Shown: positions 321-60,979, numbered from the stretch's first letter. The stretch is DNA of 63,060 bases from Elusimicrobia bacterium CG1_02_37_114 (GCA_001871125.1 MNXB01000105.1:1-63060); one strand, 5' to 3'. Numbers and translations: made by a program. The notes: generated by a model from the sequence alone, not told the origin.

Positions 321-1724
321 ATGTTTAACAGAGAAATTATAAAGTCCTTTAAGGAATGGGCGAAATTGCCTGAAAGAAAACCATTGGTCTTGAGAGGTGC
401 AAGACAGGTTGGAAAAACAACAGCGGTTAATATATTTTCAAAGGAATTTGATGTTTATATTTACTTAAATCTTGAAAAAAAGGAAGATGCCCTATTATTT
501 GAAAGAAATCTTTCGGTAAAAGAACTGTTTCAAGCAATTTTGTTATATAAGAATATTCAGTATAAAAATGGGACAGTTCTGTTATTTATTGACGAAATAC
601 AGAATTCTCCTGCCGCTGTCTCAGTACTGAGATTTTTTTATGAGGAAATGAAGGATTTATATATTATCGCGGCGGGTTCATTATTTGAAATTATGCTTGA
701 AAGAAAACACATCAGTTTTCCGGTCGGCAGGGTTGAATATCGGTTTATGTATCCTTTAACTTTTAAAGAATTCATGGAAGCGCTCGGTGAAACACCAACC
801 CTTGATTTACTTAAAACCATACCACTACCAGATTACGCACTGCCTAAACTCTATAAATTATTTCATACTTATTCTTTAGTGGGTGGTATGCCGGAGGTGG
901 TAAATAGATATGCTGACTCAAAAGAAATAACCACCCTATCTTCTATTTATCAATCTCTTTTAACATCGTTTACCGACGATATAAGTAAATATGCAAGAAA
1001 TGATAATATGGTCAATATTATCAAGCACTGTATGGAACATTCACCATATGAGACCGGTAAAAGAATAAAGTTTTCCGGCTTCGGCAATTCCAATTATCGC
1101 TCGCGTGAAATAGGGGAAGCGTTGAGAATCATGGAAAGAGCTATGTTACTTTATCTTATCTATCCTACTACTACCACAAAAATTCCTGTTATTCCGAACA
1201 AGAAAAAATCACCCAGGTTGCAGTTTTTAGATATCGGTCTTTTAAACTATGTAGCTGGATTACAGCAATATTTCTTTCAGTATGATGACCTTCTGTCTTT
1301 TTACAAGGGCATCCTTGCCGAACAGGTTGTAGGACAGGAGTTGATGGCTTCAAGTATGGGTTTATCTGTAAAACCGATATTCTGGGTTAGAGAAAAGAAA
1401 CAATCACATGCAGAGATTGACTTTCTGTACCGATTTAAGGAATATATAATTCCTGTTGAGGTTAAATCAGGGAAAGAAGGGAAAATGCGTTCACTACATC
1501 AGTTTATGAATTACGCTGAACATCCTTACGCTATCCGTTTATATTCTGGTGAGATAAAAATAAACAAAGCCAGGACACCTGATGGGAAGGTATTTTATCT
1601 CTTAAATCTTCCGTATTTCTGTATCTCGTGTCTTTCTGATTATATACAATGGTTTTTAAAAAAATGTGGCGGTCCCGATTTATCAAACAATTATGAAACT
1701 AAAAATATATCCTATTTTAACTAA
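321..1724 (+). CDS. AAA_14 ATPase with DUF4143 domain (COG1373 family)
   Basis: Walker A GARQVGKT, Walker B LFIDEIQ, AAGS motif, C-terminal EIDF..IPVEVKSG nuclease-like motif. Confidence 0.9.
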   Translation: MFNREIIKSFKEWAKLPERKPLVLRGARQVGKTTAVNIFSKEFDVYIYLNLEKKEDALLFERNLSVKELFQAILLYKNIQYKNGTVLLFIDEIQNSPAAVSVLRFFYEEMKDLYIIAAGSLFEIMLERKHISFPVGRVEYRFMYPLTFKEFMEALGETPTLDLLKTIPLPDYALPKLYKLFHTYSLVGGMPEVVNRYADSKEITTLSSIYQSLLTSFTDDISKYARNDNMVNIIKHCMEHSPYETGKRIKFSGFGNSNYRSREIGEALRIMERAMLLYLIYPTTTTKIPVIPNKKKSPRLQFLDIGLLNYVAGLQQYFFQYDDLLSFYKGILAEQVVGQELMASSMGLSVKPIFWVREKKQSHAEIDFLYRFKEYIIPVEVKSGKEGKMRSLHQFMNYAEHPYAIRLYSGEIKINKARTPDGKVFYLLNLPYFCISCLSDYIQWFLKKCGGPDLSNNYETKNISYFN

Positions 1725-1756
1725 CAGTAGGTTCTTTAGGAACTGGACGAATTCTC

Positions 1757-1785
1757 TTGACTTTACCCGTAAAAATAAGTATACT
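1757..1785 (+). promoter_or_regulatory. Sigma70-type promoter for the second ATPase
   Basis: TTGACT-17 bp-TATACT, followed by the palindrome ttattgcaataa (1787-1798). Confidence 0.55.
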
Positions 1786-1821
1786 ATTATTGCAATAACT
1801 GCAATAATAGTGAGGTAATTC

Positions 1822-3608: not shown

Positions 3609-4782
3609 ATGTGCTGAAAAACTTAATAAACTACCCCCCTATCTATTGTCATCTATAAATAAGATTAAGCTTAAGGCATACGCAAAAAAACTTGATGTTA
3701 TTGATTTGGGTATGGGTAATTCTGACATACCGACGCCCCGCCACATTGTTGAGAGGTTGTGTGACACTGTAACCAATCATCCCAACACGATGAGATACCC
3801 TCAGGCAAAAGGGATGCCAAAATTCAGAAAGATAGTTAGTGAATGGATGACACAGCGGTTTGGAGTTAAGGTTGACCCTGAGACCGAAACACTTGCTTTG
3901 ATAGGTTCAAAAGAAGGCATAGCACATCTCTGTATGGCTTTTCTTAACCCGGGAGACATAGCGCTTATTCCCGACCCCGGATACCTGGTATATTATAACG
4001 GTGTGGTATTGGCCGGAGGAAAGGTTTACGGTATGTCGGTTTTAGAAAAAAATAATTATTTGCCCGATTTAACTAAAATACCGGAAAATATTGCCAGGAA
4101 GGCAAAAATAATGTTTTTGAATTATCCCAATAATCCCACAACTGCTGTTGTTGAAGACCTTAATTTTTTCAGGGAAGTTGTTAAGTTTGCCGAAAAGTAT
4201 AATATTATAATTGTCCATGACAATGCATATTCTGAGTTGACCTTTGACGGGTATGTTGCCCCGTCTTTTCTTGAAGTCCCGGGAGCAAAAGATGTAAGCG
4301 TGGAATTTTTTTCTTTTTCCAAGATGTTTTCCATGCCGGGCTGGCGGGTGGGGTTTGTCGTGGGTAATGAATATGTGATAAAGCACCTTACAAATTTTAA
4401 GTCTTATGTGGATTTCGGGATACCCACATTCATTCAACTTTCTGCACTGCATGCTTTAAAGGAACCGGGGGATTCCATAAAAGAAATAGCAAAAGTTTTT
4501 GAAAGAAGGGCAGAAAAATTTGTTAAGGAACTTAACAAGATCGGCTGGAAGGCAGAGAAGCCGAAAGCCACTATGTATCTTTGGACGAAAATACCCGAAA
4601 AGTTTATAAAAATGGGTTCATTAAAATTCTGTGAAATGTTGATAAGAGAAACCGGCGTTGTCGGTTTGCCGGGTATCGGGTTTGGCAAACACGGCGAGGG
4701 GTATGTAAGGTTTTCTCTTGTAACACACGATAATAGATTTCACGATGTATGCCTCAGGTTGAAGAGATTATTAAAAGGATAA
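3583..4782 (+). CDS. PLP-dependent class I/II aminotransferase (AlaC/DapL-like)
   Basis: LNYPNNPT, HDNAYSE, SFSKMFSMPGWRVG; located upstream of hom. Confidence 0.85.
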   Translation: MKKSKLRFECAEKLNKLPPYLLSSINKIKLKAYAKKLDVIDLGMGNSDIPTPRHIVERLCDTVTNHPNTMRYPQAKGMPKFRKIVSEWMTQRFGVKVDPETETLALIGSKEGIAHLCMAFLNPGDIALIPDPGYLVYYNGVVLAGGKVYGMSVLEKNNYLPDLTKIPENIARKAKIMFLNYPNNPTTAVVEDLNFFREVVKFAEKYNIIIVHDNAYSELTFDGYVAPSFLEVPGAKDVSVEFFSFSKMFSMPGWRVGFVVGNEYVIKHLTNFKSYVDFGIPTFIQLSALHALKEPGDSIKEIAKVFERRAEKFVKELNKIGWKAEKPKATMYLWTKIPEKFIKMGSLKFCEMLIRETGVVGLPGIGFGKHGEGYVRFSLVTHDNRFHDVCLRLKRLLKG

Positions 4783-4868
4783 AAGGGTAAACCCTTAATT
4801 CCAGGAATTTACCCTTTAGGGTTTTATCCTTCAGGATTTTACTGGAATTTATCCTTCAGGATTTTACT
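4780..4868 (+). repeat. Modular repeat family B, copy 1
   Basis: taaaagggtaaacccttaattcc..accctttagggttttatccttcaggattttact; recurs at 14969, 32181 (reverse), 47826 and 56935. Confidence 0.9.
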
Positions 4869-4870
4869 TG

Positions 4871-6181
4871 ATGAAAAAAATTAATTTAGGTCTTATAGGT
4901 TTTGGTGCTGTAGGAAACAACGTATTAAAGTTGTTTGAACGCAACAGGGATTCTATTGAGCAGAAGATAGGTTCTTCAATTGAATTTAGTTATGTCTGTG
5001 ATAAAAACTCTGCTCGTCTGAGGGAAATAAAGAAAAAAGTCAAAAAAGTGACAACTGACTGGCACAGGGTGGTTAAGAGTCAGTCCGTGGATATTGTTAT
5101 TGAACTCATCGGCGGAGAAAACCCTGCCAGGGATATAATAATAAGTGCGCTAAAAAACAATAAAAATATTGTAACGGCTAACAAACTTGTTCTGGCGAAG
5201 AACTGGGAAGAGATATTTTCATTAGCACGAAAAAAACAGAAATTAGTTTATTTTGAAGCAGCTGTAGGTGCAGGAATACCTGTAGTGCAGGCATTGAATG
5301 AAGGTTTGGCAGCAAACAGAATTAATCGTATCATAGGGATTTTAAACGGTACAACGAATTATATTTTAACAAAAATGACCAGAGAGGATATTGATTTTGA
5401 AACTGCATTAAAACACGCACAAAAACAGGGATTCGCTGAACTTAATCCAAAACTTGATATAATGGGATTTGATACTGCACATAAACTTTCCATACTAACA
5501 TCAATTGGCTGGTCAACCTGGCTTAAGTTAGAAAATATTTATGTTGAGGGCATAGAAAAAATTGCAGTTGAAGACGTTAAGTTTGCATATAATGAATTTG
5601 GTTATGTAATAAAACTCCTGGGTATTGCACGACAGATAGATAATAAATTGGAAATTGCTGTCAGACCCTGTCTTATACCGAAGACACATCCGTTTGCATC
5701 AGTTGACAATGAATATAATGCGGTTTTGCTTGACGGTGATGCCTGCGGTGAGATTATTTTCTACGGGAAAGGGGCAGGAGGATTTCCTGCTGCAAGTGCT
5801 GTTGTCAGTGATATAATGTTTCTTGCAAGGCAGATATCCGCAGGCACTGCAGGTAAAATACCGTATGTCAGTTATGAACCTGCAAAAAAGTTGTCGTTTT
5901 TGTCTGTTGAACAGACAGAAGGTTGTTATTACTTAAGGTTTAATATGGCTGACAGGCCGGGTGTATTATCAAAAATTTCCGGTATTTTAGGTAAATGTAA
6001 AGTCTCAATAGCAAGCGTATATCAGAAAGAACCCCTGTTTAAATACAGACGGGGTGTCCCGGTTCTTATGTTAACCCACAGCACGAATGAATCCGCATTG
6101 AAAGAAGCAATAGATGAAATTGATAAATTGAAAATAACAAAGTCCAGAACAGTATTTTTCAGAATAGAAGAATTGAAATAA
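4871..6181 (+). CDS. hom: Homoserine dehydrogenase with C-terminal ACT domain
   Basis: GFGAVG, VTANK, FEAAVGAGIP, GILNGTTNYIL, DRPGVLSKI; start placed at ATG 4871. Confidence 0.95.
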   Translation: MKKINLGLIGFGAVGNNVLKLFERNRDSIEQKIGSSIEFSYVCDKNSARLREIKKKVKKVTTDWHRVVKSQSVDIVIELIGGENPARDIIISALKNNKNIVTANKLVLAKNWEEIFSLARKKQKLVYFEAAVGAGIPVVQALNEGLAANRINRIIGILNGTTNYILTKMTREDIDFETALKHAQKQGFAELNPKLDIMGFDTAHKLSILTSIGWSTWLKLENIYVEGIEKIAVEDVKFAYNEFGYVIKLLGIARQIDNKLEIAVRPCLIPKTHPFASVDNEYNAVLLDGDACGEIIFYGKGAGGFPAASAVVSDIMFLARQISAGTAGKIPYVSYEPAKKLSFLSVEQTEGCYYLRFNMADRPGVLSKISGILGKCKVSIASVYQKEPLFKYRRGVPVLMLTHSTNESALKEAIDEIDKLKITKSRTVFFRIEELK

Positions 6182-6183
6182 TA

Positions 6184-6217
6184 ATTAAAAGCCTAAAGGC
6201 TTAATTCCATAATTTTA
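6184..6217 (+). repeat. Repeat family C, identical 34-bp copy also at 49704-49737
   Basis: attaaaagcctaaaggcttaattccataatttta occurs exactly twice. Confidence 0.9.
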
Positions 6218-6246
6218 ATAATAATTTTAGGAGAATAGAGAGAGAT

Positions 6247-10496: not shown

Positions 10497-10556
10497 TTTG
10501 CTTGAACTCAAATGATAAATATTCAGTGAACCAACAGTAGGTTCCTTAGGAACCAC

Positions 10557-10776
10557 GTCATTCTGACCCCGATGATTTGTTGCTAAAGCAACCTACTGTT
10601 GGTATCGGGGGAAGAATCTAACTAAATGAGATTCTTCGTTGCCAGATTGTGTCGCAACCCCATTGGAATCCCGAACTTGTTCGGGTAGTACTATCAAGTT
10701 TGATTTCTTTTGTTATTTTTTAGCCCCAACAAGTTGGGGAATCCGGTTACGACACAGTCTGTTCACTCAGAATGAC
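10557..10776. repeat. Nested composite palindromic element
   Basis: Outer IR gtcattctga/tcagaatgac encloses several internal IR pairs. Confidence 0.8.
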
Positions 10777-12956: not shown

Positions 12957-14096
12957 ATGAAAGTAACGTATATAGCGAATGAATATCCACCGAATGTTTA
13001 TGGAGGAGCAGGGGTACACTTGAAATATTTATCAAAAGAGATTTCAAAATTAATGGATGTTGAGGTGAAATGTTTTGGCGGCGGTGAAAGAATGGAAGGT
13101 AACATTAAAGTCACCGGTTATGAAATGTGGGATAGATTAACAGGCGGGTATGACCCAAGGTTCAAAAGTGCACTCGGAGCTGTTTCTATAAATTTAGCGA
13201 TGGCCAGGGATGGCATTGATTCAGAAATAGTTCACACGCACACCTGGTATGCAGCATATGCAGGATATCTGGCAAAGCTGCTCTATGGAACAAAGTTCGT
13301 GTTGACCTGCCATAGTCTTGAACCGTTACGTCCCTGGAAGAAGGACCAGCTGGGCAGTGCGTATAATCTCAGTACCTGGTTAGAAAAAGTCGGTGTTGAA
13401 TCCGCTGACAAAGTTGTTGCTGTTTCATCATTTATGAAAGAAGATATTCTGAAGTACTTTAATATAAAGGAAGAAAACCTTGCCGTTGTCCATAATGGAA
13501 TAGATTTAGACATATGGAAGCGCAAACCATTAAGCGACTCTCTAAAAAAAGAGTATGGTATAGAAGACGACTATATACTTTTTGTTGGCAGACCGACGCC
13601 GCAGAAAGGCATGGAATATTTGGTAGAAGCTGCAGATGACATTGATGCGCAGATAGTAATGGGGGCTGCGGGCGCTGATACTAAAGAATACGAAGAAAGA
13701 ATGAAATCAAGAGTTGCAAAGAAAAAGAACATTTTGTGGATACATAAACTTCTGAAGGAAGATGAATACGTGCAACTCTACAGCAGTGCAAAAGTTTTTG
13801 TATGTCCATCAGTATATGAACCGTTCGGGATAATAAACCTGGAAGCGATGGCTTGCAAAACACCCGTTGTTGCAAGTGCAGTTGGCGGGATAAAAGATGT
13901 CGTTATACCGGAGAAAACAGGTCTGCTTGTCCAGCCGGCAGAACCCAAACAAATCTCCTCCGCAGTTAATAGATTGTTAAAAGATAAAGGACTATCTGAG
14001 AGAATGGGCGAAAACGGTAGAGCGAGAGTTGAAGAAAAATTCAGCTGGACAAAAATCGCTCAACAGACGAAAGAATTGTACGAATCCTTGATTTAA
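12957..14096 (+). CDS. glgM: GT4 glycosyltransferase, GlgM/GlgA Corynebacterium-type (maltose-1-phosphate synthase-like)
   Basis: EYPPNVYGGAGVH, HTHTWYA, HSLEPLRPWK..QLG, YEPFGIINLEAMAC; adjacent to glgE. Confidence 0.8.
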   Translation: MKVTYIANEYPPNVYGGAGVHLKYLSKEISKLMDVEVKCFGGGERMEGNIKVTGYEMWDRLTGGYDPRFKSALGAVSINLAMARDGIDSEIVHTHTWYAAYAGYLAKLLYGTKFVLTCHSLEPLRPWKKDQLGSAYNLSTWLEKVGVESADKVVAVSSFMKEDILKYFNIKEENLAVVHNGIDLDIWKRKPLSDSLKKEYGIEDDYILFVGRPTPQKGMEYLVEAADDIDAQIVMGAAGADTKEYEERMKSRVAKKKNILWIHKLLKEDEYVQLYSSAKVFVCPSVYEPFGIINLEAMACKTPVVASAVGGIKDVVIPEKTGLLVQPAEPKQISSAVNRLLKDKGLSERMGENGRARVEEKFSWTKIAQQTKELYESLI

Positions 14097-14164
14097 ACGG
14101 CAGCATAGTTGAATGCATGGGGCCGTTTATCCCAGCGAATAGTCCGAATTCGGACTGCGAGGGG
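14094..14164 (+). repeat. Bipartite element H, copy 1
   Basis: taaacggc..gccgttta-tcccagcgaatag-tccgaattcgga-ctgcgagggg; homologous to 32752-32841. Confidence 0.7.
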
Positions 14165-14207
14165 TAATTTTATTAATGGTTCCAAAATTTTTTCCGATTT
14201 CGGACTC

Positions 14208-14895: not shown

Positions 14896-14968
14896 TTACT
14901 TTGAATTATTTGTCGCATTCTAATGAGCATACTATATAGTTAACATTTCAAATTCTTGAAAAAAAGTA

Positions 14969-15036
14969 TAAAAGGGTAAACCCTTAATTCCTGGGTAAAC
15001 CCTTAACTCCTGGAGTTAATCCTTCAGGATTTTACT
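14969..15036 (+). repeat. Family B copy in the pre-16S leader
   Basis: Same modules as 4780-4868. Confidence 0.85.
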
Positions 15037-15052
15037 TGAAAATTTTTAAATT

Positions 15053-16738: not shown

Positions 16739-16814
16739 TAGGAATTAAATCTTTAGCCTTTTAATAAAAGCCTAAAGGCTAAATTCCTATAAAAGCCTAA
16801 AGGCTAAATTCCTA
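16739..16814. repeat. Family C cluster in the ITS: one degenerate inverted copy plus two tandem 25-bp units
   Basis: taaaagcctaaaggctaaattccta at 16765-16789 and 16790-16814. Confidence 0.85.
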
Positions 16815-16827
16815 TTTTTAAAAGAAG

Positions 16828-21922: not shown

Positions 21923-22675
21923 TTGTTTTGTATAATCTGCTGTTTCAGTGGTATCCTTTATAGTTCGGAAACCCTGGATACAGCAGAACAGATTTCAAAA
22001 GGGAAATTTCGCACAGTTGTTTATTACACACAGACGAAGGCAAAACCAACCTTTCAGATGGTGGATTTTTCAACGACAACCGGTTGGGGGATAAATAAGG
22101 TTGATGGAGATAGTTCCTTTGGAAACGTAGTCGTTAAACTTGTGTTAAATCCTTTTGATAAATTGAATTGGTGGGCAAGAGCGGGAATGGTATCTGATTA
22201 TAAATTAGGGGTCCCTTCAACCGATACTCCTAAAATTGAATACACAAATATCTCTTCTTATAATGGCTATACTATTGGAGCGGGAGCAAAATATCAGGTT
22301 TTTCCTCAGACAGATTTCAATTGCGGTATTTGTTTGGACTTTGGTGTTGTTTATACTAATTACATTTTTAATAGAAAATATCAGGAAAATATCGGATATT
22401 CTGATTTATCAGGTACTAAATTTGAAGATACTGAATTTCACGCAAAATTTAATCTCAGCAGGAAGATTCGCAAGACAGAGCCTTATGGCGGCGTTAGTAT
22501 TTACAGAAACTGGTATAAATTTGGAAGCAATTCAGGGACAAAAGACAATATAAATGTTTTCGCAGGTTTAAAAGTCAAACTGCGTCAGTTGAAATGGTTA
22601 ATGTGTGAGGCGAATCTGATTGGCGAAACCAGCCTGTCAGCTGGTTTTTGTATGGCTGTGGGTTCACACGAATAA
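21923..22675 (+). CDS. Putative outer-membrane beta-barrel protein (start uncertain)
   Basis: Hydrophobic signal-like N-terminus, alternating aromatic beta-strand pattern (YTIGAGAKY, EPYGGVSIY, LSAGF). Confidence 0.55.
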   Translation: MFCIICCFSGILYSSETLDTAEQISKGKFRTVVYYTQTKAKPTFQMVDFSTTTGWGINKVDGDSSFGNVVVKLVLNPFDKLNWWARAGMVSDYKLGVPSTDTPKIEYTNISSYNGYTIGAGAKYQVFPQTDFNCGICLDFGVVYTNYIFNRKYQENIGYSDLSGTKFEDTEFHAKFNLSRKIRKTEPYGGVSIYRNWYKFGSNSGTKDNINVFAGLKVKLRQLKWLMCEANLIGETSLSAGFCMAVGSHE

Positions 22676-22716
22676 GTGTGAACAAGATCCACAGGACGGC
22701 GAGTCGGTGAGCCGTC
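22656..22716 (+). repeat. Element G, copy 3; its GAATAA loop supplies the ORF stop codon
   Basis: ctgtgg-gttcacac-GAATAA-gtgtgaac-aagat-ccacag-gacggc-GAGTCGGTGA-gccgtc. Confidence 0.85.
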
Positions 22717-22726
22717 GGGGAAAGCT

Positions 22727-30400: not shown

Positions 30401-31686
30401 TCCGTCAGTCACAAATTTTTTCCCAGAGACCATCAGTCGTTAAATTCCATAATTTAAAAGCGGTCCGGGATAAATCCGGCGACTATGTGGTAATGACACG
30501 CAATAGCGAAGTTATTTTCATGGAATCCGATACTAAACAGCGTGATTCATACAAACTTCCCTATGGAGCAAAACTAAAAGTAAGAAATAATGCTGAAGTC
30601 AAAGCCAATGAACTTGTTGTTGAGTGGGATCCATACTATCTGCCTATTGTCACCGAATATGAAGGCACGGTTAAATTTGAAGATATTATTGAAGGTAAAA
30701 CAATGCGGAAGGAAAAAAGTAAAGTTATGGGATTGGAAGAAAGAATGATGATTGAACATCGTGGTGAAAAACTCCGTCCCCAGGTTGTCATAGTTAATAA
30801 AGAAGGTAAACGGATTGCAATGTATCCTCTTCCTGTAGATACTCTCCTTTCAGTGGATGAAGGAGATAAATTACATGCGGGCGATACCCTGGCAAGGATT
30901 CCTCAGGAAGTCCTTAAGAGCAAAGACATAACGGGCGGATTACCGCGGGTGGCAGAACTATTTGAAGCCCGACACCCGCACAATGCAGCTATTATATCAG
31001 AAATTGACGGTGTTATTAAACTTGGCATCACATCAAAGGGTTCACCTAAAGTAACCGTAATGGATGAACAATCCGGCATGACAAGAGAATATATTATTCC
31101 GACAGGACGGCATTTAGTTGTCTATGAAGGAGATAAAGTAGGGGCGGGTGAACCGCTGACAGACGGAGCTATAGACCCACACGATATTCTCAAAGTGAGG
31201 GGTGCCAAGGAAGTACAGGAGTTTCTTGTTAATGAAATCCAGCAGGTTTACCGACTCCAGGGTGTTATAATAAATGACAAACATATAGAAATAATAGTTC
31301 GGCAGATGCTCTCAAATGTCCGAATCATAAATCCCGGCGGCAGCAAGTTTCTGTATGGTGAAATCATACCCAAGAGATGTTATGACGAAGAAAGAAGGAA
31401 AACAGAACAGTTAAGAAAAAAAATTATGAAGGATAAAGGACGTGAAGAAGCAAATAAAATTAAAGCACCTGAAATCCAGCCGGTATTGCTTGGAATCACC
31501 AAGGCCTCGCTCTCCAGCGAATCATTTATTTCAGCTGCGAGTTTTCAGGAGACAACACGCATATTAACCGAAGCCGCCACTATGGGACAGACAGACTATT
31601 TAGAGGGATTAAAAGAAAATGTTATAATCGGGCATTTAATACCAGCAGGTACAGGAATCAAACAAATAAGGGGGGACGCTACTTGA
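27466..31686 (+). CDS. rpoC: RNA polymerase beta' subunit
   Basis: [37 protein letters not shown]. Confidence 0.99.
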
Positions 31687-31782
31687 ATTTTGCTACTTTT
31701 TCACAAATGAAATGAATTCAAGATAATCGTCCGAATTCGGACGCTACAGTAGTAAAAAGTAGCAAAATTCAAGTAGCGTCCC
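31673..31782. mobile_element. MITE-like element D, copy 1, with perfect 29-bp TIRs
   Basis: gggacgctacttgaattttgctacttttt ... aaaaagtagcaaaattcaagtagcgtccc. Confidence 0.85.
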
Positions 31783-31796: not shown

Positions 31797-32183
31797 ATGC
31801 CAACAGTAAATCAACTTATAAGGTCTATTCGACAGAAAATCAGAGGAAAAACTAAATCACCCGCACTTACGGGATGTCCTCAGCGCAGAGGTGTGTGTAC
31901 CCGTGTCTACACGACTACACCAAAGAAACCTAACTCTGCACTTCGTAAGGTTGCACGGGTGAAATTGACTACGGGCATTGAAGTTACGGCATATATTCCT
32001 GGTGTAGGACATAATTTACAGGAACATTCAATTGTGTTGGTTCGCGGTGGCAGAATAAAAGATTTGCCGGGTGTGAGGTATCATATTATAAGGGGTAGTT
32101 TAGATGCTACGGGTGTTGAGGGAAGAAAGCAGGGACGTTCAAAATACGGTGCAAAACTGGTTAAAACAGCAGCACCAGCTTAA
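31797..32183 (+). CDS. rpsL: 30S ribosomal protein S12
   Basis: [25 protein letters not shown]. Confidence 0.99.
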
Positions 32184-32253
32184 CTCCAGGGTAAAATCCT
32201 GAAGGATAAAACCCTAAAGGGTAAATTCCAGGAATTAAGGGTTTACCCTTTTA
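32181..32253 (-). repeat. Family B copy in reverse orientation
   Basis: Reverse complement of the 4780 modules. Confidence 0.85.
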
Positions 32254-32274: not shown

Positions 32275-32754
32275 ATGGCAAGAAAACCATTAAGACCAAG
32301 ACAGCGAAGAGAAAAAACCGCACCTGATTATAAATATAACAATATATCGGTGAACAGGTTCATCAATAAAATTAACTACAAAGGCAAAAAAACTGTTGCT
32401 GAAAAAATTTTATATGGTGCATTTGATATAATCAGGGAGAAGACCAAGCAAGAACCGTTAGAAGTTTTTACTAAGGCGATGGAAAACGCAAGACCGCTTG
32501 TCGTTGTGAAAGCTCGACGGATTGGCGGAGCTACTTATCAGGTGCCTGTGGAAATGTCCCGAACACGGGGTGAAACAATAGGAATGAGATGGATTATTAA
32601 TTCCGCACGGGAAAGAAAAGGTCTTCCAATGAAAATCAAACTTGCCGAGGAACTGATGTCAGCCTACAAAAAAGAAGGTTCGGCAGTAAAGAAAAAGGAA
32701 GATACTCACAAAATGGCTGATGCAAACAAGTCCTTTGCACATTACAGGTGGTAA
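32275..32754 (+). CDS. rpsG: 30S ribosomal protein S7
   Basis: RRIGGATYQVPVE, KKKEDTHKMADANKSFAHYRW. Confidence 0.99.
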   Translation: MARKPLRPRQRREKTAPDYKYNNISVNRFINKINYKGKKTVAEKILYGAFDIIREKTKQEPLEVFTKAMENARPLVVVKARRIGGATYQVPVEMSRTRGETIGMRWIINSARERKGLPMKIKLAEELMSAYKKEGSAVKKKEDTHKMADANKSFAHYRW

Positions 32755-32841
32755 ACGGTAGTCCCGAGTAATTCGGGACATGTCACCGTTTACCCCCAGC
32801 GATTAGTTTTCAAACTTGTCCTGTTTGAAAACTGCGAGGGG
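32752..32841 (+). repeat. Bipartite element H, copy 2
   Basis: taaacggt..accgttta-cccccagcgattag-[hairpin]-ctgcgagggg. Confidence 0.7.
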
Positions 32842-32854
32842 TTAGTTAAAGTTT

Positions 32855-40997: not shown

Positions 40998-41230
40998 AAA
41001 AGAAAACTCGTATAGGAACCGTTGTTTCAGATAAGATGAATAAGACACGTGTTGTGCTGGTTGAACGCACGGTCCGTCATCCTCTTTATAAGAAAGTCAT
41101 TCATAAGACTAAGAAGTATTATGTCCACGACGAAGAAAACATTTCCCATACCGGTGATAAAGTTAAAATAATAGAGACAAGACCGCTGTCTAAACTTAAA
41201 CGATGGAGAATAGAAGGGGACGCTACTTGA
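40994..41230 (+). CDS. rpsQ: 30S ribosomal protein S17 (C-terminus replaced by element D)
   Basis: [26 protein letters not shown]. Confidence 0.97.
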
Positions 41231-41340
41231 ATTTTGCTACTTTTTCACAAATGAAATTTTGTTTTGTATACACGAACTATGAATATTTATTAATGAATTT
41301 TTACTAGTATAGAAAGTAGCAAAATTCAAGTAGCGTCCCC
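41216..41340. mobile_element. MITE-like element D, copy 2
   Basis: Same TIRs as 31673-31782 (one internal mismatch in the right TIR) with a different interior. Confidence 0.85.
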
Positions 41341-41348
41341 CAAATAAA

Positions 41349-44082: not shown

Positions 44083-44121
44083 AATAAAGGATATCTTTTT
44101 ATCCGCAGGATTATCTAATTT

Positions 44122-47809: not shown

Positions 47810-47825
47810 ATATAAGCATAAAGTA

Positions 47826-47874
47826 TAAAAGGGTAAACCCTTAATTCCTGGAATTAATCCTTCAGGATTTTACT
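47826..47874 (+). repeat. Family B copy, short form
   Basis: taaaagggtaaacccttaattcctggaattaatccttcaggattttact. Confidence 0.85.
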
Positions 47875-47883
47875 TAACTAAAT

Positions 47884-48102: not shown

Positions 48103-48212
48103 AAGTACGTTCGTCAGTTAAACCAATTTGTAAAAAGTGTAAGATTGTGAAACGCAAAAACGTTATAAGAATTATTTGTTCAGACCCAAGACATAAACAG
48201 AGACAAGGTTAA
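48099..48212 (+). CDS. rpmJ: 50S ribosomal protein L36 (not in the ORF track; 37 aa)
   Basis: Manual translation [37 protein letters not shown]. Confidence 0.97.
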
Positions 48213-48215
48213 TAA

Positions 48216-48231
48216 CCCCGATAAATCGGGG
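48216..48231. repeat. Family A hairpin ccccgataaatcgggg
   Basis: Identical copy at 56920-56935; reverse complement lies within 18931-18950 in 23S. Confidence 0.8.
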
Positions 48232-48250
48232 AATCCCTGGGGAGGAAAGA

Positions 48251-49074: not shown

Positions 49075-49701
49075 GTGGGACGTTATACAGGCCCTTTATG
49101 TAAATTATGTCGCAGGGAAAAGACGAAACTTTTCCTTAAAGGAGAGAAATGCGATAAAAATTGTGTTATTGACCGCATCAAACAAAAGGGCAAGTCAGGA
49201 CAATCCAGACAAAAGAGAATGGTAAAGTTAAGCGAATACGCTAAACGGCTGCATGAAAAACAAAAGATGAAACACATGGCAGGGCTTACAGAAGAACAAT
49301 TTCGTAATTATTATAGACAGGCATTAAAAATGCCAGGCATGACAGGCGAACAATTGCTTTTGTTGGTTGAAACAAGGCTGGATAGTGTTTTACATAGATT
49401 GGGTTTTGCACCGTCAAAACGTTTTGCACGGCAATTAGTAACACACAGGCATATAACTGTAAATGACCGTATTATGAAATTTGCAGGTTATCGGGTAAAA
49501 CCCGGTGATAAAATAAAACTTCGCGAAAGTGTTCATGAGAATCCGGTCATTAAAAAATCTTTGGAGAAAGACATTGAGTCACCTTCCTGGTTATCTGTTG
49601 ACAAAACGAATTTTGCTGCTGAAGTTTTATCTGTTCCATCACGGAGTGAAATATCCTATCCGATAGATGAAACACTTATAGTAGAATTATATTCAAGATA
49701 A
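49075..49701 (+). CDS. rpsD: 30S ribosomal protein S4 (Cys-containing form)
   Basis: CKLCRRE..KC..C, ETRLDSV, ARQLVTH. Confidence 0.98.
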   Translation: MGRYTGPLCKLCRREKTKLFLKGEKCDKNCVIDRIKQKGKSGQSRQKRMVKLSEYAKRLHEKQKMKHMAGLTEEQFRNYYRQALKMPGMTGEQLLLLVETRLDSVLHRLGFAPSKRFARQLVTHRHITVNDRIMKFAGYRVKPGDKIKLRESVHENPVIKKSLEKDIESPSWLSVDKTNFAAEVLSVPSRSEISYPIDETLIVELYSR

Positions 49702-49703
49702 TG

Positions 49704-49737
49704 ATTAAAAGCCTAAAGGCTTAATTCCATAATTTTA
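49704..49737 (+). repeat. Family C copy
   Basis: Identical to 6184-6217. Confidence 0.9.
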
Positions 49738-49761
49738 CGGTAGGAGGAGAATACATCCATT

Positions 49762-50715: not shown

Positions 50716-51065
50716 TAAAAGCTTATTCCAGACGAAAACTATCCCGTGCTTCAAGCCATAGAACTGCAATGTTACGGAATCTTGCCACGGACCTTTTTAT
50801 GCACGAAAAAATTAAAACAACTTTTGCCAGAGCAAAGGAATTACAGAGATTCAGTGAAAGACTAATAACAAAAGCAAAAGGAAATAATTTAACTGCACGC
50901 AGAGCAGTAGACCGTGATATAAAGGATAAGGCGGTGTTAAAAAAAATTTTTGAAGTACTTCTACCAAGATACTCTGATAGAAAAGGCGGGTATACGCAGG
51001 TCTATAAGATTGGCCAGAGAATGGGTGATTCTGCATTAATGTCGTTGATAAGATTGGTGCAGTAA
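50712..51065 (+). CDS. rplQ: 50S ribosomal protein L17
   Basis: HRTAMLRNL, ERLITKAK, RKGGYT. Confidence 0.98.
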   Translation: MIKAYSRRKLSRASSHRTAMLRNLATDLFMHEKIKTTFARAKELQRFSERLITKAKGNNLTARRAVDRDIKDKAVLKKIFEVLLPRYSDRKGGYTQVYKIGQRMGDSALMSLIRLVQ

Positions 51066-51068: not shown

Positions 51069-51158
51069 TCCCCTATATTCCCCCTTTACCAAAAGTAGGT
51101 TCTTTAGGAACCAAAAGTAGGTTCCGTAGGAATAAAAGGGGGAAATAATAAGGGGGAA
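51069..51158. repeat. Composite repeat: imperfect outer IR around two tandem 22-bp family E units
   Basis: ccaaaagtaggttctttaggaa and ccaaaagtaggttccgtaggaa; related units at 1723-1743 and 10533-10553. Confidence 0.75.
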
Positions 51159-51162
51159 AAGT

Positions 51163-52191: not shown

Positions 52192-53003
52192 ATAAACCTA
52201 TCGTATTAGTCCTTTTAATAAGCATTTCTATAATATTAATTTCTCTTAATCTCACTCCCAAAATCGTTGCAATAAAGAACGTTTTGAATTATTTTCTATT
52301 CCCGGTTCCCGGACTATCTTTTAAAATAATGGACCAGGCTGAACAATTAGGAGAAAATATAAGTTCGCTTATAAAGTTAAACGAAGAAAACCGTGCATTA
52401 AAAGACAGAATTGAGAAATATGTGCATTTAGAAAATGAATATAAAACAATGCTGCAGGAAAATATACAACTGAAGGAAATATTAATCTTATCAGGACATG
52501 TAAAGTATGATTTAATTTCTGCAAGAATTATTGTCAGGAATCCTTTGGATTGGTTCAGGTCCGTAATAATTGATAAGGGGTACGAAGACAACATTAAGTT
52601 AGATATGCCTGTAGTGGCAATTATTGATACAAAAGAAACTCTTGTGGGACGCATTTTTGAAGTTAATAAGAATAACTCAAAAGTCTTATTGATTACTGAT
52701 AAACTATCCTCAGTGAGTGTCAGAATAAAAAGGTCAGGAACCGATGGCGTGATTGAGGGTAGAGGGAAATCATATTTGCTGCTTGATTATCTGCTTGTAG
52801 ATAGTGATATAAAATCAGGAGATGAGATTGTTACCAGCGGTGTTGGCGGTGTGTTTCCAGCAGGGCTACCTGTTGGTGTTGTGCAGGAGATATTTTTTGA
52901 TAAAAAGACTCACTTCAAGCAGGCATTCGTTAAGCCGGCAGTGAACCTTAATAAAATCGGTATAGTTTGTGTAATTATACCACAGCCCCTTGAGACGAAA
53001 TAA
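52188..53003 (+). CDS. mreC: Rod shape-determining protein MreC
   Basis: TM helix plus coiled coil, [25 protein letters not shown]. Confidence 0.93.
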
Positions 53004-53064
53004 GTCTCGTTTATAATTTTAGAATTATTTTCTGAAGCAGTAAGTGGGTAAAAAAGATGAGACA

Positions 53065-55150: not shown

Positions 55151-56919
55151 AGTTAGTTTATAAGAAGTTTTTGAGAAGGCTCAGTAAGTATTCTGCGTTT
55201 ATCATAATATTTTTTGTAGCGATTTTGCTAAAACTTGTCTATTTTCAGGTTTTAAAGGGAGATTATTTTTACAACCTGTCTGAACAAAATTGTGCGAATC
55301 TTTATGTTGAACAGGCACCCCGCGGAAAGATTTATGACTGTGCTCAAAATCCGCTCTGTGAAAACAGACCCTCGGTTACGGTTATGTTTTATCCCTTTCT
55401 GTATAAGGAAAATTATAAACTTCAGGCAGAGTTAGCCGATAGAGCGGAAAAGATATTGCCCGGGAGTAAATCCAAAATATTATCCGCGTACAAAACCACT
55501 AAAGCGGTACAATTAGGGAAGGATGTCTCGCGCGATATAATGTTCAAGTTTCTTGAACAAAGAATAAATTTTCAGGGTATCTCGGTCGTCACAGAACAGA
55601 GAAGATACTATCCCTACGGAGGGTTAGCCAGTCAGATGATAGGATATATTGGAGAAATCAGTCAGCATGAGTTAAAATACCTTCACCTCAAGGGCTACAA
55701 ACAGGGCGATATAATAGGTAAAATTGGTTTAGAAAAACAATATGACACTTATCTGCGCGGAGTAAATGGTGGCTGGCTGATAGAAACCGATGCCAGTGGC
55801 TGCCAGACAGACATCATTAAACACGTACTTCCACAGCCAGGCGATGATTTGTATTTGACAATAGACATTGGACTTCAACTGGTTGCCGAAAAAGCACTGG
55901 AAGAAACGGGTTGTAACGGTGCTATTGTCGGACTTGACCCGAATGACGGTTCTGTAAAGATATTGGTTTCTCAACCCACATTTGACCCTAACAGTTTTAT
56001 CTCAAACAGTGAGGAACGATTAAAATATATGAGTGATAAAGACCTGCCGTTATACAACAGGACAATACAGGCACAATATGCACCGGGTTCTGTATTCAAA
56101 ATAATAACCTCGTTAGCTGCTTTGGATACAAAAAGTATTACTCCTGAACGGAAATTTGTGTGCCCGGGATATTTCAAGCTGGGCAGAAAAACATTTAAAT
56201 GCTGGAAAAAAGAGGGACATGGCAGGATGTGTTTTTCTGAAGGTGTCAGGAATTCCTGTGATGTATATTTTTATAATGTTGGATTGATTACGGGTATTGA
56301 TGCCATTGTGAAATATGCAGAGAAGTTCGCCCTGGGAAAACCTACGGGTATTGACTTACCGTTTGAAAAGTCAGGTTTTATACCCGCAGCTTCCTGGCGT
56401 GAAAAAAAATTTGGTAAAAACTGGCTGAAGGGTGATACTGTAAACATTTCCATAGGCCAGGGATACCTTGATTTGACGCCACTGCAATTAGCCAGTCTGG
56501 TTTCATCAGTAGCAAACAGGGGTAAAATATACAAACCGTATATAGTAAAGAAAATAATCAGTCCCGAAGAGAAACTTATTTATGAACATGAACCGGAAAA
56601 AACAAAAGAGGTTAAATTGCCGGAAAATATATGGTTAAATTTAGAGTCAGCGCTCGTGGATGTTGTGGATTCCGGTACAGGACAGGCAGCACGTGTTCCC
56701 GGAGTGAAAATTGCCGGTAAAACAGGTACCTCAGAAAACCCTCATGGAAAAGACCATGCCTGGTTTGTCTGTTACATGCCTGTTGAGAACCCCAGATTAG
56801 CACTGGCTGTTTTGGTTGAACATGGCGGTATGGGTGGGGCAGTGGCCGCACCCGTAGCGGGTAAGATATTGAGATATATAGTAGATAGAGATAAATCAGG
56901 GACACATCCCATTTTTTAA
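55129..56919 (+). CDS. mrdA: Penicillin-binding protein 2
   Basis: APRGKIYD, PGSVFK (SxxK), SCD, AGKTGT. Confidence 0.95.
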   Translation: MEWEGEIELVYKKFLRRLSKYSAFIIIFFVAILLKLVYFQVLKGDYFYNLSEQNCANLYVEQAPRGKIYDCAQNPLCENRPSVTVMFYPFLYKENYKLQAELADRAEKILPGSKSKILSAYKTTKAVQLGKDVSRDIMFKFLEQRINFQGISVVTEQRRYYPYGGLASQMIGYIGEISQHELKYLHLKGYKQGDIIGKIGLEKQYDTYLRGVNGGWLIETDASGCQTDIIKHVLPQPGDDLYLTIDIGLQLVAEKALEETGCNGAIVGLDPNDGSVKILVSQPTFDPNSFISNSEERLKYMSDKDLPLYNRTIQAQYAPGSVFKIITSLAALDTKSITPERKFVCPGYFKLGRKTFKCWKKEGHGRMCFSEGVRNSCDVYFYNVGLITGIDAIVKYAEKFALGKPTGIDLPFEKSGFIPAASWREKKFGKNWLKGDTVNISIGQGYLDLTPLQLASLVSSVANRGKIYKPYIVKKIISPEEKLIYEHEPEKTKEVKLPENIWLNLESALVDVVDSGTGQAARVPGVKIAGKTGTSENPHGKDHAWFVCYMPVENPRLALAVLVEHGGMGGAVAAPVAGKILRYIVDRDKSGTHPIF

Positions 56920-56979
56920 CCCCGATAAATCGGGGAATTCCTGGAATTCACCCTTTAGGGTTTTATCCCTCAGGATTTT
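56920..56979 (+). repeat. Family A hairpin fused to family B modules
   Basis: ccccgataaatcgggg-aattcctggaattcaccctttagggttttatccctcaggatttt. Confidence 0.8.
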
Positions 56980-56994
56980 TCTTAAGTTTAAAAC

Positions 56995-58314: not shown

Positions 58315-58316
58315 AA

Positions 58317-60749
58317 ATGTATAATAAAATCCTGCCGTTTGTAACACGTCCTTCAAGGTATATTAATTCCGAATGGAACTCAATACACAAGAGCCGTTCA
58401 GATATAAAAATATGTTTTTGTTTTCCTGATATGTATGAGGTCGCCATGAGTAACTTAGGTATAGAAATATTATACCATACAGTCAATTCCCGTGACGATG
58501 CAGTCGCAGAGAGGTGTTACTGTCCCGCCACTGATATGGAACAACTGCTTCGTAAGGAAAAAATTCCTCTCCTGAGTTTAGAGTCAAAAACACCTCTCAA
58601 AGATTTTGACATTGTAGGATTTTCACTTCAGCATGAATTATGTTATACAAATGTATTGACAATGCTTGACCTGGCGGACATACCAATTTACAGTCCAGAC
58701 AGGACAGAAACTTCTCCGCTGGTTATTGCAGGCGGGCCCGCCTGCTCTAATCCGGAACCTGCATCGGATTTCTTTGATATAATGGTAATCGGTGAAGGCG
58801 AGGATATAATAAATGAAATAATAACCACAGTCAAACAATCAAAAAAATGTTCCAGAAAGGATTTACTGTTAAACTTAGCGCAGATTGAAGGAGTATACGT
58901 TCCACAGTTTTATGAAGTGGAATACAATACTGACGGAAGAATATCAAAAATTACAAGAAACTTCCAGAACATCCCGGAAAAAATAAAGAAACGCACCGTG
59001 GATTTAAAAACAGCATTCTATCCATTCAGCCCGATTGTCCCCTATGCTCAGATAGTCCACGACAGGCTGAACATAGAAATAAGTCGTGGATGCAGGAACA
59101 ACTGCAGGTTCTGCCAGGCATCAAACCTCTACCGTCCCTGGCGGGAAAGGCCTGTTGAAAAAATCCTGGAAATACTGGAAAACAGTGTTCAAAATACAGG
59201 ATATGAAGAATTAGCATTAACAAGTTTTTCAGTCAGCAGTTATTCAAAAATAGAGGAATTAATCAAATCAGTTAACCGGTATTGCCTTGACAACAACATA
59301 TTCCTCTCGGTTCCTTCATTGAGATGTGATATGAAGTCAGCCAGAATACTTCCATACCTGATATATCCCCACAGGTCAAACATCACCTTCGCCATAGAAA
59401 CAGGCACAGAGAGACTGAGAAAAGTTATCAATAAAGAAATACCTGATGAAGATATTATATCCACTGTCCTGTACACGCGCAAACTTGGCTGGAAATTAAT
59501 AAAACTTTATTTTATGATAGGACTTCCGACTGAAAAAGAAGAAGACATATCAGCTATAGTAGAACTTACGGGTAAAATCCAGCAGAGTGTGCCCGGTATG
59601 AAGTTCAATATCACAATATCGCCCTTTGTTCCGAAATCTCATACGCCGTTTCAGTGGTCAAAAATGGAATCTATGGATTCCCTGATTGACAAGGCAAAAC
59701 TTCTAAAACATAAACTCCACGGTGAAGTCAAAGTCCATGATATAAGAACATCCCTGCTGGAAGCAGTATTCTCAATGGGTGACAGGAAACTTGGCAGTGT
59801 AATATACACAGCATGGAATAACGGCTGTAAGTTTGATATGTGGAAAGAGAAATTTAATTTTGACTTATGGCTTGAAGCGTTTAAAAAGTGCGGTATAGAC
59901 TATGAATTTTATTTACGGGGGTATGATAGCGACGATATGCTCCCCTGGGAGCATATAAACTTCGGACCCGAAAAAAAGGTTTTGTATGAAGAATACGCGA
60001 AAATAGGGACAGCGACCATTTATGGTCATACTTTAGAAAAAACTCCTGTCCCGGATTTGCCTCCTGTCCCAATATCAGGAAACTATAAAAACCTGGAAGG
60101 ACAGTTTTTATACAGGTTACTATTTTCACGAAAGAATGACCTGCGGTTTCTATCACATCTTGAACAGATAGAATTAATCCGTAGATGCATCAAGCGTACA
60201 GGACTGCCTGTCTCATACACTTCCGGGTTCCATCCCCAGATGAAAATATCCTTCGGCACAGCAATATCCGTTGGATATGAGAGCGATACGGAATATGTTG
60301 ATTTGGAACTCTACAAAAAAACAGGTATAGAACAGGTCGCTAAAGAAATCATAAAACAGTTGCCGCAAAACTTCTCATTACTCAAGGTTGAGCAGATACC
60401 GCGTTTTCTGCCTTCATTAGATTCATCGTTCAGCAAAGTAACTTACAAGATAGATTTAAGTTGCTTGAAAGAACAGGTTGATTGGGGAAATATTGGTAAG
60501 ACCGTCCAGAATTTTTTGTCACAGAAAGAAGTTATAATCACAAAAATTAAAGGCGACAGAACAGAATCAATAGATGTAATACCTTTAATTCAGAAACTGG
60601 AGCCAAAAGATAACTACCGGATAGAACTCTCCTTGAAATTCGGCCCTAAAAAGAATGTCAAACCTGAAAAAATCATCCAAAGTCTGCTGAACCTTGATGA
60701 ATCCAGCACGAAACTCCTTAAAATCACCCGCACCACTCTGTTATCCTGA
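58317..60749 (+). CDS. B12-binding-type radical SAM protein (TIGR03960-like) fused to a DUF2344/TIGR03936-like domain
   Basis: FPDMYEVAMSNLG, RGCRNNCRFC (CX3CX2C), FVPKSHTPFQW, second domain LRFLSHL..YTSGFHP. Confidence 0.85.
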   Translation: MYNKILPFVTRPSRYINSEWNSIHKSRSDIKICFCFPDMYEVAMSNLGIEILYHTVNSRDDAVAERCYCPATDMEQLLRKEKIPLLSLESKTPLKDFDIVGFSLQHELCYTNVLTMLDLADIPIYSPDRTETSPLVIAGGPACSNPEPASDFFDIMVIGEGEDIINEIITTVKQSKKCSRKDLLLNLAQIEGVYVPQFYEVEYNTDGRISKITRNFQNIPEKIKKRTVDLKTAFYPFSPIVPYAQIVHDRLNIEISRGCRNNCRFCQASNLYRPWRERPVEKILEILENSVQNTGYEELALTSFSVSSYSKIEELIKSVNRYCLDNNIFLSVPSLRCDMKSARILPYLIYPHRSNITFAIETGTERLRKVINKEIPDEDIISTVLYTRKLGWKLIKLYFMIGLPTEKEEDISAIVELTGKIQQSVPGMKFNITISPFVPKSHTPFQWSKMESMDSLIDKAKLLKHKLHGEVKVHDIRTSLLEAVFSMGDRKLGSVIYTAWNNGCKFDMWKEKFNFDLWLEAFKKCGIDYEFYLRGYDSDDMLPWEHINFGPEKKVLYEEYAKIGTATIYGHTLEKTPVPDLPPVPISGNYKNLEGQFLYRLLFSRKNDLRFLSHLEQIELIRRCIKRTGLPVSYTSGFHPQMKISFGTAISVGYESDTEYVDLELYKKTGIEQVAKEIIKQLPQNFSLLKVEQIPRFLPSLDSSFSKVTYKIDLSCLKEQVDWGNIGKTVQNFLSQKEVIITKIKGDRTESIDVIPLIQKLEPKDNYRIELSLKFGPKKNVKPEKIIQSLLNLDESSTKLLKITRTTLLS

Positions 60750-60979
60750 CCCCGGATGGGGAATTTTCAGCAATAACGAATGAATAATTCTTCGCACCCG
60801 CGGTGAGCCCTACCTGTAAGACAGAAAGAAAAAAGCTGGTTTTGACTTTAAAAATGCTCGAGTCAAAAGAAATTCTTCGCACCCACCCTTTTTAACCCCC
60901 TATCTGATAAGTATAAATACATAGATGACTTTCTGGTAATTAAACAGGTAGAAATTTCCCGGATTTTTTTTGCTACCCC

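Follow-up and report, generated by a model that had tools for sequence, protein, structure and literature searches.

Within the 63,060-nt stretch of DNA from Elusimicrobia bacterium CG1_02_37_114 that we analysed (GCA_001871125.1, MNXB01000105.1:1-63060; hereafter, "the window"), short repeat elements of several unrelated families, which we refer to as A, B, C, D, E, G, and H, sit directly against the stop codons of genes, and in many cases the stop codon lies in the element itself. The best explanation for this placement, to which we assign a probability of roughly 0.6, is a selection filter acting on insertions in combination with stop codons that the elements carry along. An original prediction from the sequence had listed elements at or within a few bases of stop codons, and had named a preference for TAA/TGA targets and survival bias inside operons as possible causes. 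Every listed case was found where it had been described, including the hairpins at mreC (52992-53008) and at the radical-SAM gene, which both turned out to be single copy and no members of the repeat families. What the prediction overlooked is that many of the stops come from the element.

The contact with stop codons was quantified with repeat blocks defined by shared 12-mers, on genes that were curated inside the window and called by a simple open reading frame (ORF) rule in other contigs. Nearly all window spacers longer than ~30 nt are composed of short repeats, with 23 blocks lying within the 5.4 kb of intergenic DNA and only three to four copies within genes. Among the 18 stop-side blocks, 12 overlapped a stop codon or lay ≤3 nt from it, while start-side contacts numbered 3 out of 24; counted per gene end, 12 of 60 stops were touched versus 3 of 60 starts (Fisher p = 0.025). 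Under a simple null in which insertion is uniform over the ~4.2 kb of ancestral intergenic DNA, p was 9e-10.

The excess recurred in an independent sample of 384 kb of nonredundant sequence (window included). A scan of metagenome contigs for the B 3' module yielded 112 loci, of which 53 were aquifer contigs bearing arrays; a clustered regularly interspaced short palindromic repeat (CRISPR) array in one of them, L145, was excluded from the block statistics. Of 118 arrays, 103 were intergenic. In co-directional spacers of the aquifer contigs, arrays touched the upstream stop in 22 of 55 cases, against 5.0 expected under uniform placement, and where at least 60 nt were free they did so in 6 of 26 cases against 0.24 expected, a value reached in 0 of 200,000 simulations. 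Contact with starts (4/55, and 1/26 with at least 60 nt free) stayed at chance level. At one locus, represented by contigs L097 and L016, the array overlaps the stop when blocks are k-mer-defined. When 15 nt before each start were set aside for the ribosome-binding site, the arrays had a mean relative position of 0.50 (0.50-0.58 when 15-25 nt were set aside), and hence the excess is confined to the stop-contacting class, with no general shift toward stops.

Empty sites in relatives and element-borne stop codons

Relatives that lack a given element reveal what the gene junction looked like before insertion. We used the contigs L089 and L094, with 91-94% protein identity to the window, and L095, with 80%; the assembly of the closest relative (~91-94% identity) is ERZ27247683. 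The ancestral spacers in these relatives measure -4 to 18 nt. Between rpsL and rpsG, L089 reads TAA followed by TTGAAAGG..., a 17-nt spacer, whereas the window reads TAA, a ~70-nt B array, and then TTCAAGAAAGG, with the same Shine-Dalgarno sequence and start. Between rpsG and fusA, L089 has TAA and then 5 nt (CAGTTATG), and the window has TAA, a ~95-nt H element, and AGTTTATG, after which the start follows. The rpmJ-rpsM spacer of the relative (18 nt) is present unchanged in the window, with a 20- to 22-nt A unit added at the stop. The insertion points at rpsL and rpsG thus lie at, or ≤1 base from, TAA, and the one at rpmJ lies somewhere in the first 7 nt past TAA.

In other genes the end of the protein-coding sequence itself was affected, and the native stop or C-terminal tail is displaced in rpsD, rpoC, and rpsQ, and probably in mrdA too. 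At the rpsD-rpoA junction, the relative reads TTCAAGG-TAG-GAGG, while in the window a 42-nt C element follows TTCAAG, bringing its own TAA (then TGA), and is itself followed by G-TAG-GAGG. The point of entry of the C element is accordingly the native stop or the position one base upstream of it. The S4 protein remains unaltered (..ELYSR), and the old TAG persists in its Shine-Dalgarno context TAGGAGG. In L094, ribosomal protein S17 ends in KRWWLTEVLEKTTYSHVK, its stop forming an ATGA overlap with rplN; it is eight residues longer than S17 of the window, where the tail has been replaced and the protein ends inside the left repeat of D. When D is excised in silico from rpoC, the gene ends KQIRY-TAA, and more distant relatives end KQILNL before the stop.

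The relatives bear their own, different insertions in the same slot. An A-type hairpin, CGCCCCGATTTATCGGGGCG, directly follows the TAA stop of the L15 gene in a relative, and a 70-nt insert at infA/rpmJ has duplicated the ATGA overlap (ATGA, 70 nt, ATGA). In L095 (6853-7373), an insert of ~500 nt flanked by a TTGG duplication begins 4 nt past the S11 stop (TAG-TTGG, ~500 nt, TTGG-AGG) and separates rpsK from rpsD, where the window has a spacer of 15 nt. In L094 (95-334; here 94% identity), a hairpin insert of 59 nt lies immediately ahead of the stop-start overlap of rpmC and rpsQ, adding a 15-residue tail and a new TAA, so that ribosomal protein L29 measures 79 amino acids (aa) versus 64 aa in the window. 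At 80-94% protein identity, relatives do not share the elements, and because the insertions differ at this distance they are, judged from these alignments, young.

The stop codons and tails written by elements recur on unrelated genes. In the aquifer contigs, 23 ORFs have their stop in an element, and these ORFs are long (median 351 aa). Tails encoded by elements recur, each followed by the stop: KRVNP three times, SKILKD, QVKS, and KKSSSS twice each, and GDAT twice in addition to two cases in the window. With the AT-rich element ends (TAA, TTAA, TGA), each of the three reading frames meets a stop codon within 1-17 codons. D reads GGG GAC GCT ACT TGA in 4 of 4 gene-terminal copies (p ~0.04), and B tails use at least two reading frames.

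At the other side of the junction, insertions always keep the module from Shine-Dalgarno sequence to start intact. Where the Shine-Dalgarno sequence overlaps the stop, as at rpsD (TAGGAGG), the element entered before the stop instead. Several genes begin 1-5 nt past an array end of the form ...TCAGGATTTTACTT (window 4860-4873; L116, L133, L145, and L168), so that ~8-13 nt separate the start codon from the AGGA in the final hairpin. From this spacing, the AGGA of the last array hairpin may serve as a Shine-Dalgarno sequence, and the 3' ends AGGATTTTACTT and GCGAGGGG would likewise be ribosome-binding sites.

Table 1. Repeat elements and hairpins of the window. The offset is the start of the repeat block relative to the first base after the stop codon; negative values denote overlap.
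Element	Position	Strand	Placement	Offset (nt)
E unit (AACAGTAGGTTCTTTAGGAAC, GTAG-headed hairpin)	1723..1749	+	Overlaps TAA stop of AAA_14 ATPase 1 (AAA14-1, 1722-1724)	-2
B array	4779..4871	+	Whole aminotransferase-hom spacer; aminotransferase stop 4780-4782 is the TAA of 5' linker TAAAAGGG; 3' end AGGATTTTACTTG abuts hom start (4868/4871)	-4
C element (ATAATAATTAAAAGCCTAAAGGCTTAATTCCATAATTTTA)	6178..6218	+	hom stop 6179-6181 inside; 98% identity to rpsD copy	-4
Inverted E pair, REPIN-like	10530..10619	.	5' end of panC, divergent panC/glgE spacer; among the few start-side contacts	
H element	14094..14165	+	glgM stop 14094-14096 in first stem (TAAACGG...CCGTTTA); TAA on both flanks	-3
B array	14964..15039	+	rRNA leader, 13 nt upstream of 16S 5' end; no stop there	
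Tandem C-like units, two exact 25-nt copies	16751..16821	+	16S-tRNA spacer, 6 nt before tRNA	
G two-hairpin element	22651..22719	+	Stop 22673-22675 of 250-aa "barrel" ORF in GAATAA loop	-25
D, MITE-like	31671..31782	+	rpoC ends GGG GAC GCT ACT TGA (31684-31686) in left repeat	-16
B array	32180..32253	+	Begins at rpsL stop 32181-32183	-4
H element	32752..32846	+	Begins at rpsG stop 32752-32754; TAA at both ends	-3
D, second copy	41216..41341	+	rpsQ ends ...RIE-GDAT-TGA (41228-41230) in left repeat	-15
ATCCGCAGGAT module	44098..44121	+	Abuts rpsE start (44122); 15 nt past rplR stop	
Complete 56-nt B element (AAGTATAAAA-GGGTAAACCC-TTAATTCC-T-GGAATTAA-TCCTTCAGGA-TTTTACTT)	47821..47876	+	11 nt past map stop, 7 nt before infA	
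A element (TAACCCCGATAAATCGGGGAAT)	48213..48240	+	Directly 3' of rpmJ stop 48210-48212	0
C element (49698-49739/40), then old stop TAG (49741-49743)	49698..49743	+	Supplies rpsD stop TAA 49699-49701	-4
Composite palindrome (CCCCTATATTCCCCCTTT ... AAAGGGGGAAATAATAAGGGGG)	51069..51157	+	Two tandem E units inside (51090-51132); begins 3 nt past rplQ stop 51063-51065	
Single-copy hairpin GAGAC-GAAATAA-GTCTC	52992..53008	+	mreC stop 53001-53003 in loop; outside repeat families	
GGGACACATCCC half-module, then A, then B modules	56898..56985	+	mrdA stop 56917-56919 formed by the TAA in the A unit	-3; -22 if further module GGGACACATCCC counted
Radical-SAM stop TGA, then hairpin CCCCGGATGGGG	60747..60761	+	Single copy, outside repeat families	

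Selection, targeting, RNA function, and chance

Under the explanation that we favour, several unrelated, non-autonomous miniature hairpin families (E and the nested hairpins of H and D, the A/B/C mosaics, D, G, and H) would have colonised spacers in which the ancestral gap of -4 to ~18 nt was mostly the ribosome-binding site of the next gene. Surviving insertions would then be those that landed in the last dispensable codons, or past the stop but ahead of the Shine-Dalgarno sequence that follows, a stretch of 0-7 nt. An insertion just before the native stop would leave a protein that ends with a short tail written by the element, and some 3' ends (AGGATTTTACTT, GCGAGGGG) could substitute for a displaced Shine-Dalgarno sequence. 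We favour such a filter because at least five unrelated families of different sequence and architecture occupy the same slot, because their insertion points at the empty sites, scattered from about -33 to +4 nt, share no motif, and because the elements hold stops in all frames. It is further favoured by the entry before the stop where Shine-Dalgarno sequence and stop overlap, by arrays that abut the starts of RNA genes, which have no need of a ribosome-binding site (at distances of 13 nt from 16S and 6 nt from a tRNA), and by a 170-nt MITE (miniature transposable element with inverted repeats) of Candidatus Anammoxibacter that has the same inner modules and sits a median of ~100 nt from stops. 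The short ancestral spacers, the lack of an orientation bias, and the lack of a common target argue in the same direction. The survival bias inside operons that had originally been proposed is thereby well supported, by the ancestral spacers, the intact start modules, the entry before the rpsD stop, and the like behavior of the families, and we infer that selection, not targeting, is the main cause.

A number of observations weigh against this explanation. H has TAA on both flanks in both copies, D enters genes in a single frame, and the rpsL and rpsG insertions lie at or next to TAA. Moreover, stop contact remains enriched with at least 60 nt free, where a pure filter needs ~10 dispensable terminal codons, a number that is plausible given the 0-14 codons lost at the empty sites; the null for these long spacers is uniform placement without promoters or other constraints, and the gene calls in contigs other than the window are crude.

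The first four of these observations also favour target-site preference, where a transposase would recognise TAA, TTAA, TA, or another feature of gene ends and hit stops directly. For H at rpsG, the BLAST overlap with the empty site is 3 nt (TAA), the A unit at rpmJ begins with TAA right after the TAA stop, within whose first 7 nt the insertion point falls, and the TAA of another A unit is the mrdA stop. The 4-bp duplications ATGA and TTGG in relatives, moreover, are marks of true transposition beside stops. Yet the pattern is common to unrelated families, the insertion points vary without a shared motif (C and D both entered after AAG), and A, B, C, and D lack a consistent target-site duplication, TAA...TAA occurring with H only. 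A fixed reading frame, which we considered as a sign of stop targeting, holds for D only and was discarded, given that B enters in at least two frames; even for D, the constant frame could reflect selection for the shortest tail, with 4 codons versus 13-29 in the other frames. The Anammoxibacter MITE, which has the same modules, is not near stops. A preference for TAA or TGA may thus apply to some families, as the flanks of H, the frame of D, and the excess in long spacers hint, and we consider targeting unlikely as the cause of the pattern as a whole.

A selected function in RNA would explain the stop-side copies differently: Hairpins might shield the 3' end of the upstream cistron, offer sites for processing by RNase III, or delay ribosomes during termination, and copies next to stops would then be retained. 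Some families do fold far better than shuffled sequence. D forms a perfect ~30-bp stem that encloses the stop codon, with -55.6 kcal/mol and z of -11 for the rpoC copy and z of -12 for the rpsQ copy; H reaches z of -4.4 (glgM) and -6 (rpsG), G -4.6, the rplQ-mreB composite -4.1, and the single-copy mreC hairpin -3.2. Precedents exist in the REPs of Escherichia coli (as summarised in PMC12306157), in REPs as RNA elements (PMC3733652), and in QMITE2 of Coxiella (PMC5896051). On the other hand, shuffled sequence folds as well as A, B, C, and E do (z of -0.5 to -1.9), and we found no orientation bias relative to transcription (B 3' module, 18 sense and 12 antisense). In Rfam 15, no family was matched by the elements, only rRNA, tRNA, and group I intron families giving matches, while D gave spurious microRNA-precursor matches far under threshold. 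The youth of the insertions, which differ between relatives of 80-94% identity, and the arrays in the rRNA leader and the internal transcribed spacer also speak against such a role. A reading of the elements as intrinsic terminators was rejected by a scan in which terminator-like sites numbered 23 against 14.8 ± 4.6 in shuffles, i.e., without enrichment, with only two to three of them in elements; arrays also lie within co-transcribed ribosomal operons and the rRNA leader. On the folding predictions, a selected RNA role is possible for D, G, and H, and as an account of the stop-side placement overall it seems improbable.

More speculative is the idea that the A/B/C units are "operon-compatible intercistronic cassettes" from an aquifer pool that crosses phyla (Elusimicrobiota, anammox Planctomycetota, Patescibacteria, and Nitrospirota). 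With stops in all frames at the 5' side and a Shine-Dalgarno-like AGGA ~8 nt before the 3' end, such cassettes could take the place of the entire junction, from stop to start, between essential genes that are translationally coupled, lacking an element-encoded transposase and spreading by a mechanism that acts at gene ends or hairpin loops. We would bet heavily against it.

Chance is the weakest candidate: Random placement in very short spacers would bring any element near a stop, in keeping with ancestral spacers of -4 to 18 nt, with elements that also lie near starts (6-30 nt), and with a mean relative position of 0.50-0.58 after 15- to 25-nt exclusion, but elements contain stops far more often than starts (12 versus 3 in the window, 22 versus 4 in the other contigs), contact persists where at least 60 nt are free, and native stops and tails are demonstrably displaced, so that pure chance, rejected by the window and the aquifer-contig statistics alike, is scarcely credible.

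Repeat families, comparable systems, and genomic setting

The A, B, and C families consist of units of 10-16 nt (GGGTAAACCC, CCCTAAAGGG, TTCCWGGAA, TCCTTCAGGA, GCCTAAAGGC, and CCCCGATAAATCGGGG) that are assembled, in both orientations, into mosaics with TTAA, TTTA, or TTTTA as linkers. Their stems measure only 4-6 bp, with TAAA or TTCA loops and AT-rich linkers. A complete B element of ~56 nt reads AAGTATAAAA-hairpin-TTAATTCC-W-GGAATTAA-hairpin-TTTTACTT, and B arrays follow the plan TAAAA-hairpin-TWAATTCC-W-GGAATTAA-hairpin-TTTTA; with palindromic units in alternating orientation and a small set of conserved linkers, they are mosaics of the BIME type. D has perfect 29-nt terminal inverted repeats, lengths of 112 and 126 nt in its two window copies, no coding capacity, and a terminus that recurs in at least five other contigs, and thus has the hallmarks of a MITE (terminal inverted repeats, <300 bp, noncoding, multicopy); neither window copy is flanked by a direct repeat. 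Larger, structured elements make up G and H. The E hairpin, A-GTAG-GTTCYTTAGGAAC, has a GTAG head, which is also present in the D termini (GTAGCGTCCCC; GTAG-CGTC-CCC) and in hairpins nested in H and D (GGTAGTCCCGAG, GTAGCGTCCGAATTCGGACG), while the GTAG/CGTC tag is absent from A, B, C, and G.

In aquifer contigs such as L153, L154, and L178, modules nest in one another's loops, as in CCCCGATAAAT(AAGATAATCCTGCGGATAAAT)CGGGG, where GATAAAT is duplicated and sometimes reiterated two to three times. Of the contigs L116 and L133, one has an additional 43 nt between two GTAGCGTCC hairpins, a difference that suggests recent mobility. Repeat modules also occur within coding sequences, namely, AGATAGTCCTGCGGACAAAT in L4 (rplD, 37639-37658), CGATAAATTAGATAATCCTGCGGAT in adenylate kinase (adk, 46509-46533), and a G copy in GlgE (11109-11170), all three apparently as in-frame insertions. 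An ORF flanked on both sides by GTAGCGTCC, i.e., a candidate REPtron, was not found in the ~320 kb of related contigs, a small sample, and no RAYT gene was seen in the sampled contigs (~320 kb, too small to count as absence).

REPs are known to be almost all extragenic, between co-directional genes, with the 3' end of the upstream ORF less than 20 bp away or in overlap and the following ORF at a distance that varies, and a role as RNA elements has been suggested for them (Di Nocera et al. 2013, PMC3733652). The window elements resemble the REP/BIME/REPIN systems (PMC3733652; Bertels & Rainey 2011, PMC3116915) in their short palindromic units arranged as dimers, tandems, and mosaics with fixed linkers, in their extragenic position near 3' ends with occasional in-frame copies in genes, and in the GTAG heads of E, the D termini, and the nested H hairpins. 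They differ in that A, B, and C have no GTAG/CGTC tag and are smaller and more modular, with loop nesting and 25-nt tandem duplications, and in that the same 23-nt module is found here in metagenome-assembled genomes (MAGs) labelled as several phyla. In E. coli, 260 of 496 REPs lie within 15 nt of the upstream stop and stall ribosomes (Liang, Rudd & Deutscher 2015, as summarised in PMC12306157). A large share near the stop is common to both systems, but the E. coli REPs lie downstream of an intact native stop and have an experimentally shown function (ribosome stalling, tmRNA), whereas here many stops are inside the element. Close to D at rpoC and rpsQ are QMITE1 and QMITE2 of Coxiella burnetii, which overlap functional gene 3' ends by 1-50 bp, one of them supplying the C-terminal extension and stop of EnhC, and for QMITE2 a mechanism involving RNase III and non-stop mRNA has been proposed (PMC5896051). 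Those elements belong to another lineage and have other sequences, while here core essential genes are concerned (RpoC, S17, S4, and PBP2), with a recurring GDAT tail before the stop.

The modules inside the rplD, adk, and glgE coding sequences recall the RPEs of Rickettsia and intragenic REPs. The small dispersed repeats (SDR) of Nostoc and other cyanobacteria, which PMC3116915 names and Elhai and coworkers reportedly described in 2008, are said to be hairpin units of ~20-30 nt without an element-encoded transposase, nested and scattered in intergenic DNA. By this description they are like the very small nested hairpin units of the window; we know of no report of stop-codon replacement by SDRs. 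A literature search by sequence found the element sequences in no paper. REPs and MITEs close to stops are already known, while the present families, their place in the ribosomal operons of Elusimicrobiota, and their sharing among aquifer MAGs of several phyla appear to be undescribed.

A scan of species-representative genomes for the 23-nt module gave at least 85 loci, with hosts among Candidatus Anammoxibacter, other Brocadiales, Planctomycetes RIFCSPLOWO2_12_FULL_40_19, Patescibacteria, Nitrospirota, and others, a spread across phyla that is subject to the caveat of MAG binning. Viral contigs gave zero matches to the module, and a viral origin was set aside for that reason. In contigs of Candidatus Anammoxibacter OFTM214 (L001-L085), the module lies inside the 170-nt MITE, present in dozens of copies with the ends TATAGTCAAACAAATCAGGTTTTCGAAAA...TTTCGAAAACCTAATGCTTTTGAGTATA, whose central TTCC...GGAG hairpin varies among copies with pairing seemingly kept. 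In Logan contigs of four metagenome runs (X16 and X22-X24), k-mer depth rose to 90-158 over the B array, versus ~4 in the flanks (window 47705-47986), corresponding to 20-40x the flanking depth, and to 25-42 over the E units (window 51089-51200), and contigs broke at both arrays. Hence, B and E modules are highly repeated in these aquifer metagenomes. The aligned Logan contigs displayed repeat-depth spikes only, and no presence/absence polymorphism of elements was seen in them.

The window has a G+C content of 39.6% and carries an rRNA operon, the rplJ-rplL-rpoBC-rpsL...rplQ ribosomal super-operon, mreBCD-mrdA-rodA, the radical-SAM gene, and metabolic genes. Its S7 protein has its best named relatives in Elusimicrobiota, its S17 protein is identical to one in GCA_002781045.1 and in JGI sample 3300008095, and its sequence was found only in groundwater and aquifer DNA metagenomes. 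Two group I introns (Rfam matches at 19635-19864 and 19881-20555) account for the 4.4-kb span of the 23S rRNA gene (17121-21541), and ORFs at 19341-19835 and 20046-20531 resemble homing endonuclease genes. A DUF4062/HATPase_c_4 gene lies between mreC and mreD (53044-54561), and at the window end an IS3-like element (61694-62892), its two frames joined at an A-run, adjoins a truncated AAA_22 gene. The CRISPR array of L145 (9645-12000), an aquifer contig that also has a B array, consists of the repeat GTTTCAATCCACGCTCCCGTACAGGGAGCGAC with a period of ~66 nt, unrelated in sequence to the modules.

Consequences for gene ends and their annotation

The empty sites indicate that highly conserved essential genes (RpoC, S17, S4, and PBP2) can have their ends rewritten by very small mobile repeats in a streamlined uncultured bacterium, as a result of which the same short peptide tails recur on unrelated proteins. 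For annotation, this means that a stop codon or C-terminus in such a genome can originate from an element, and that spacer length is an unreliable guide to operon structure there. For the biology of mobile elements, the data draw a distinction between being found at stop codons and targeting them, and they point to undescribed repeat families common to aquifer bacteria.

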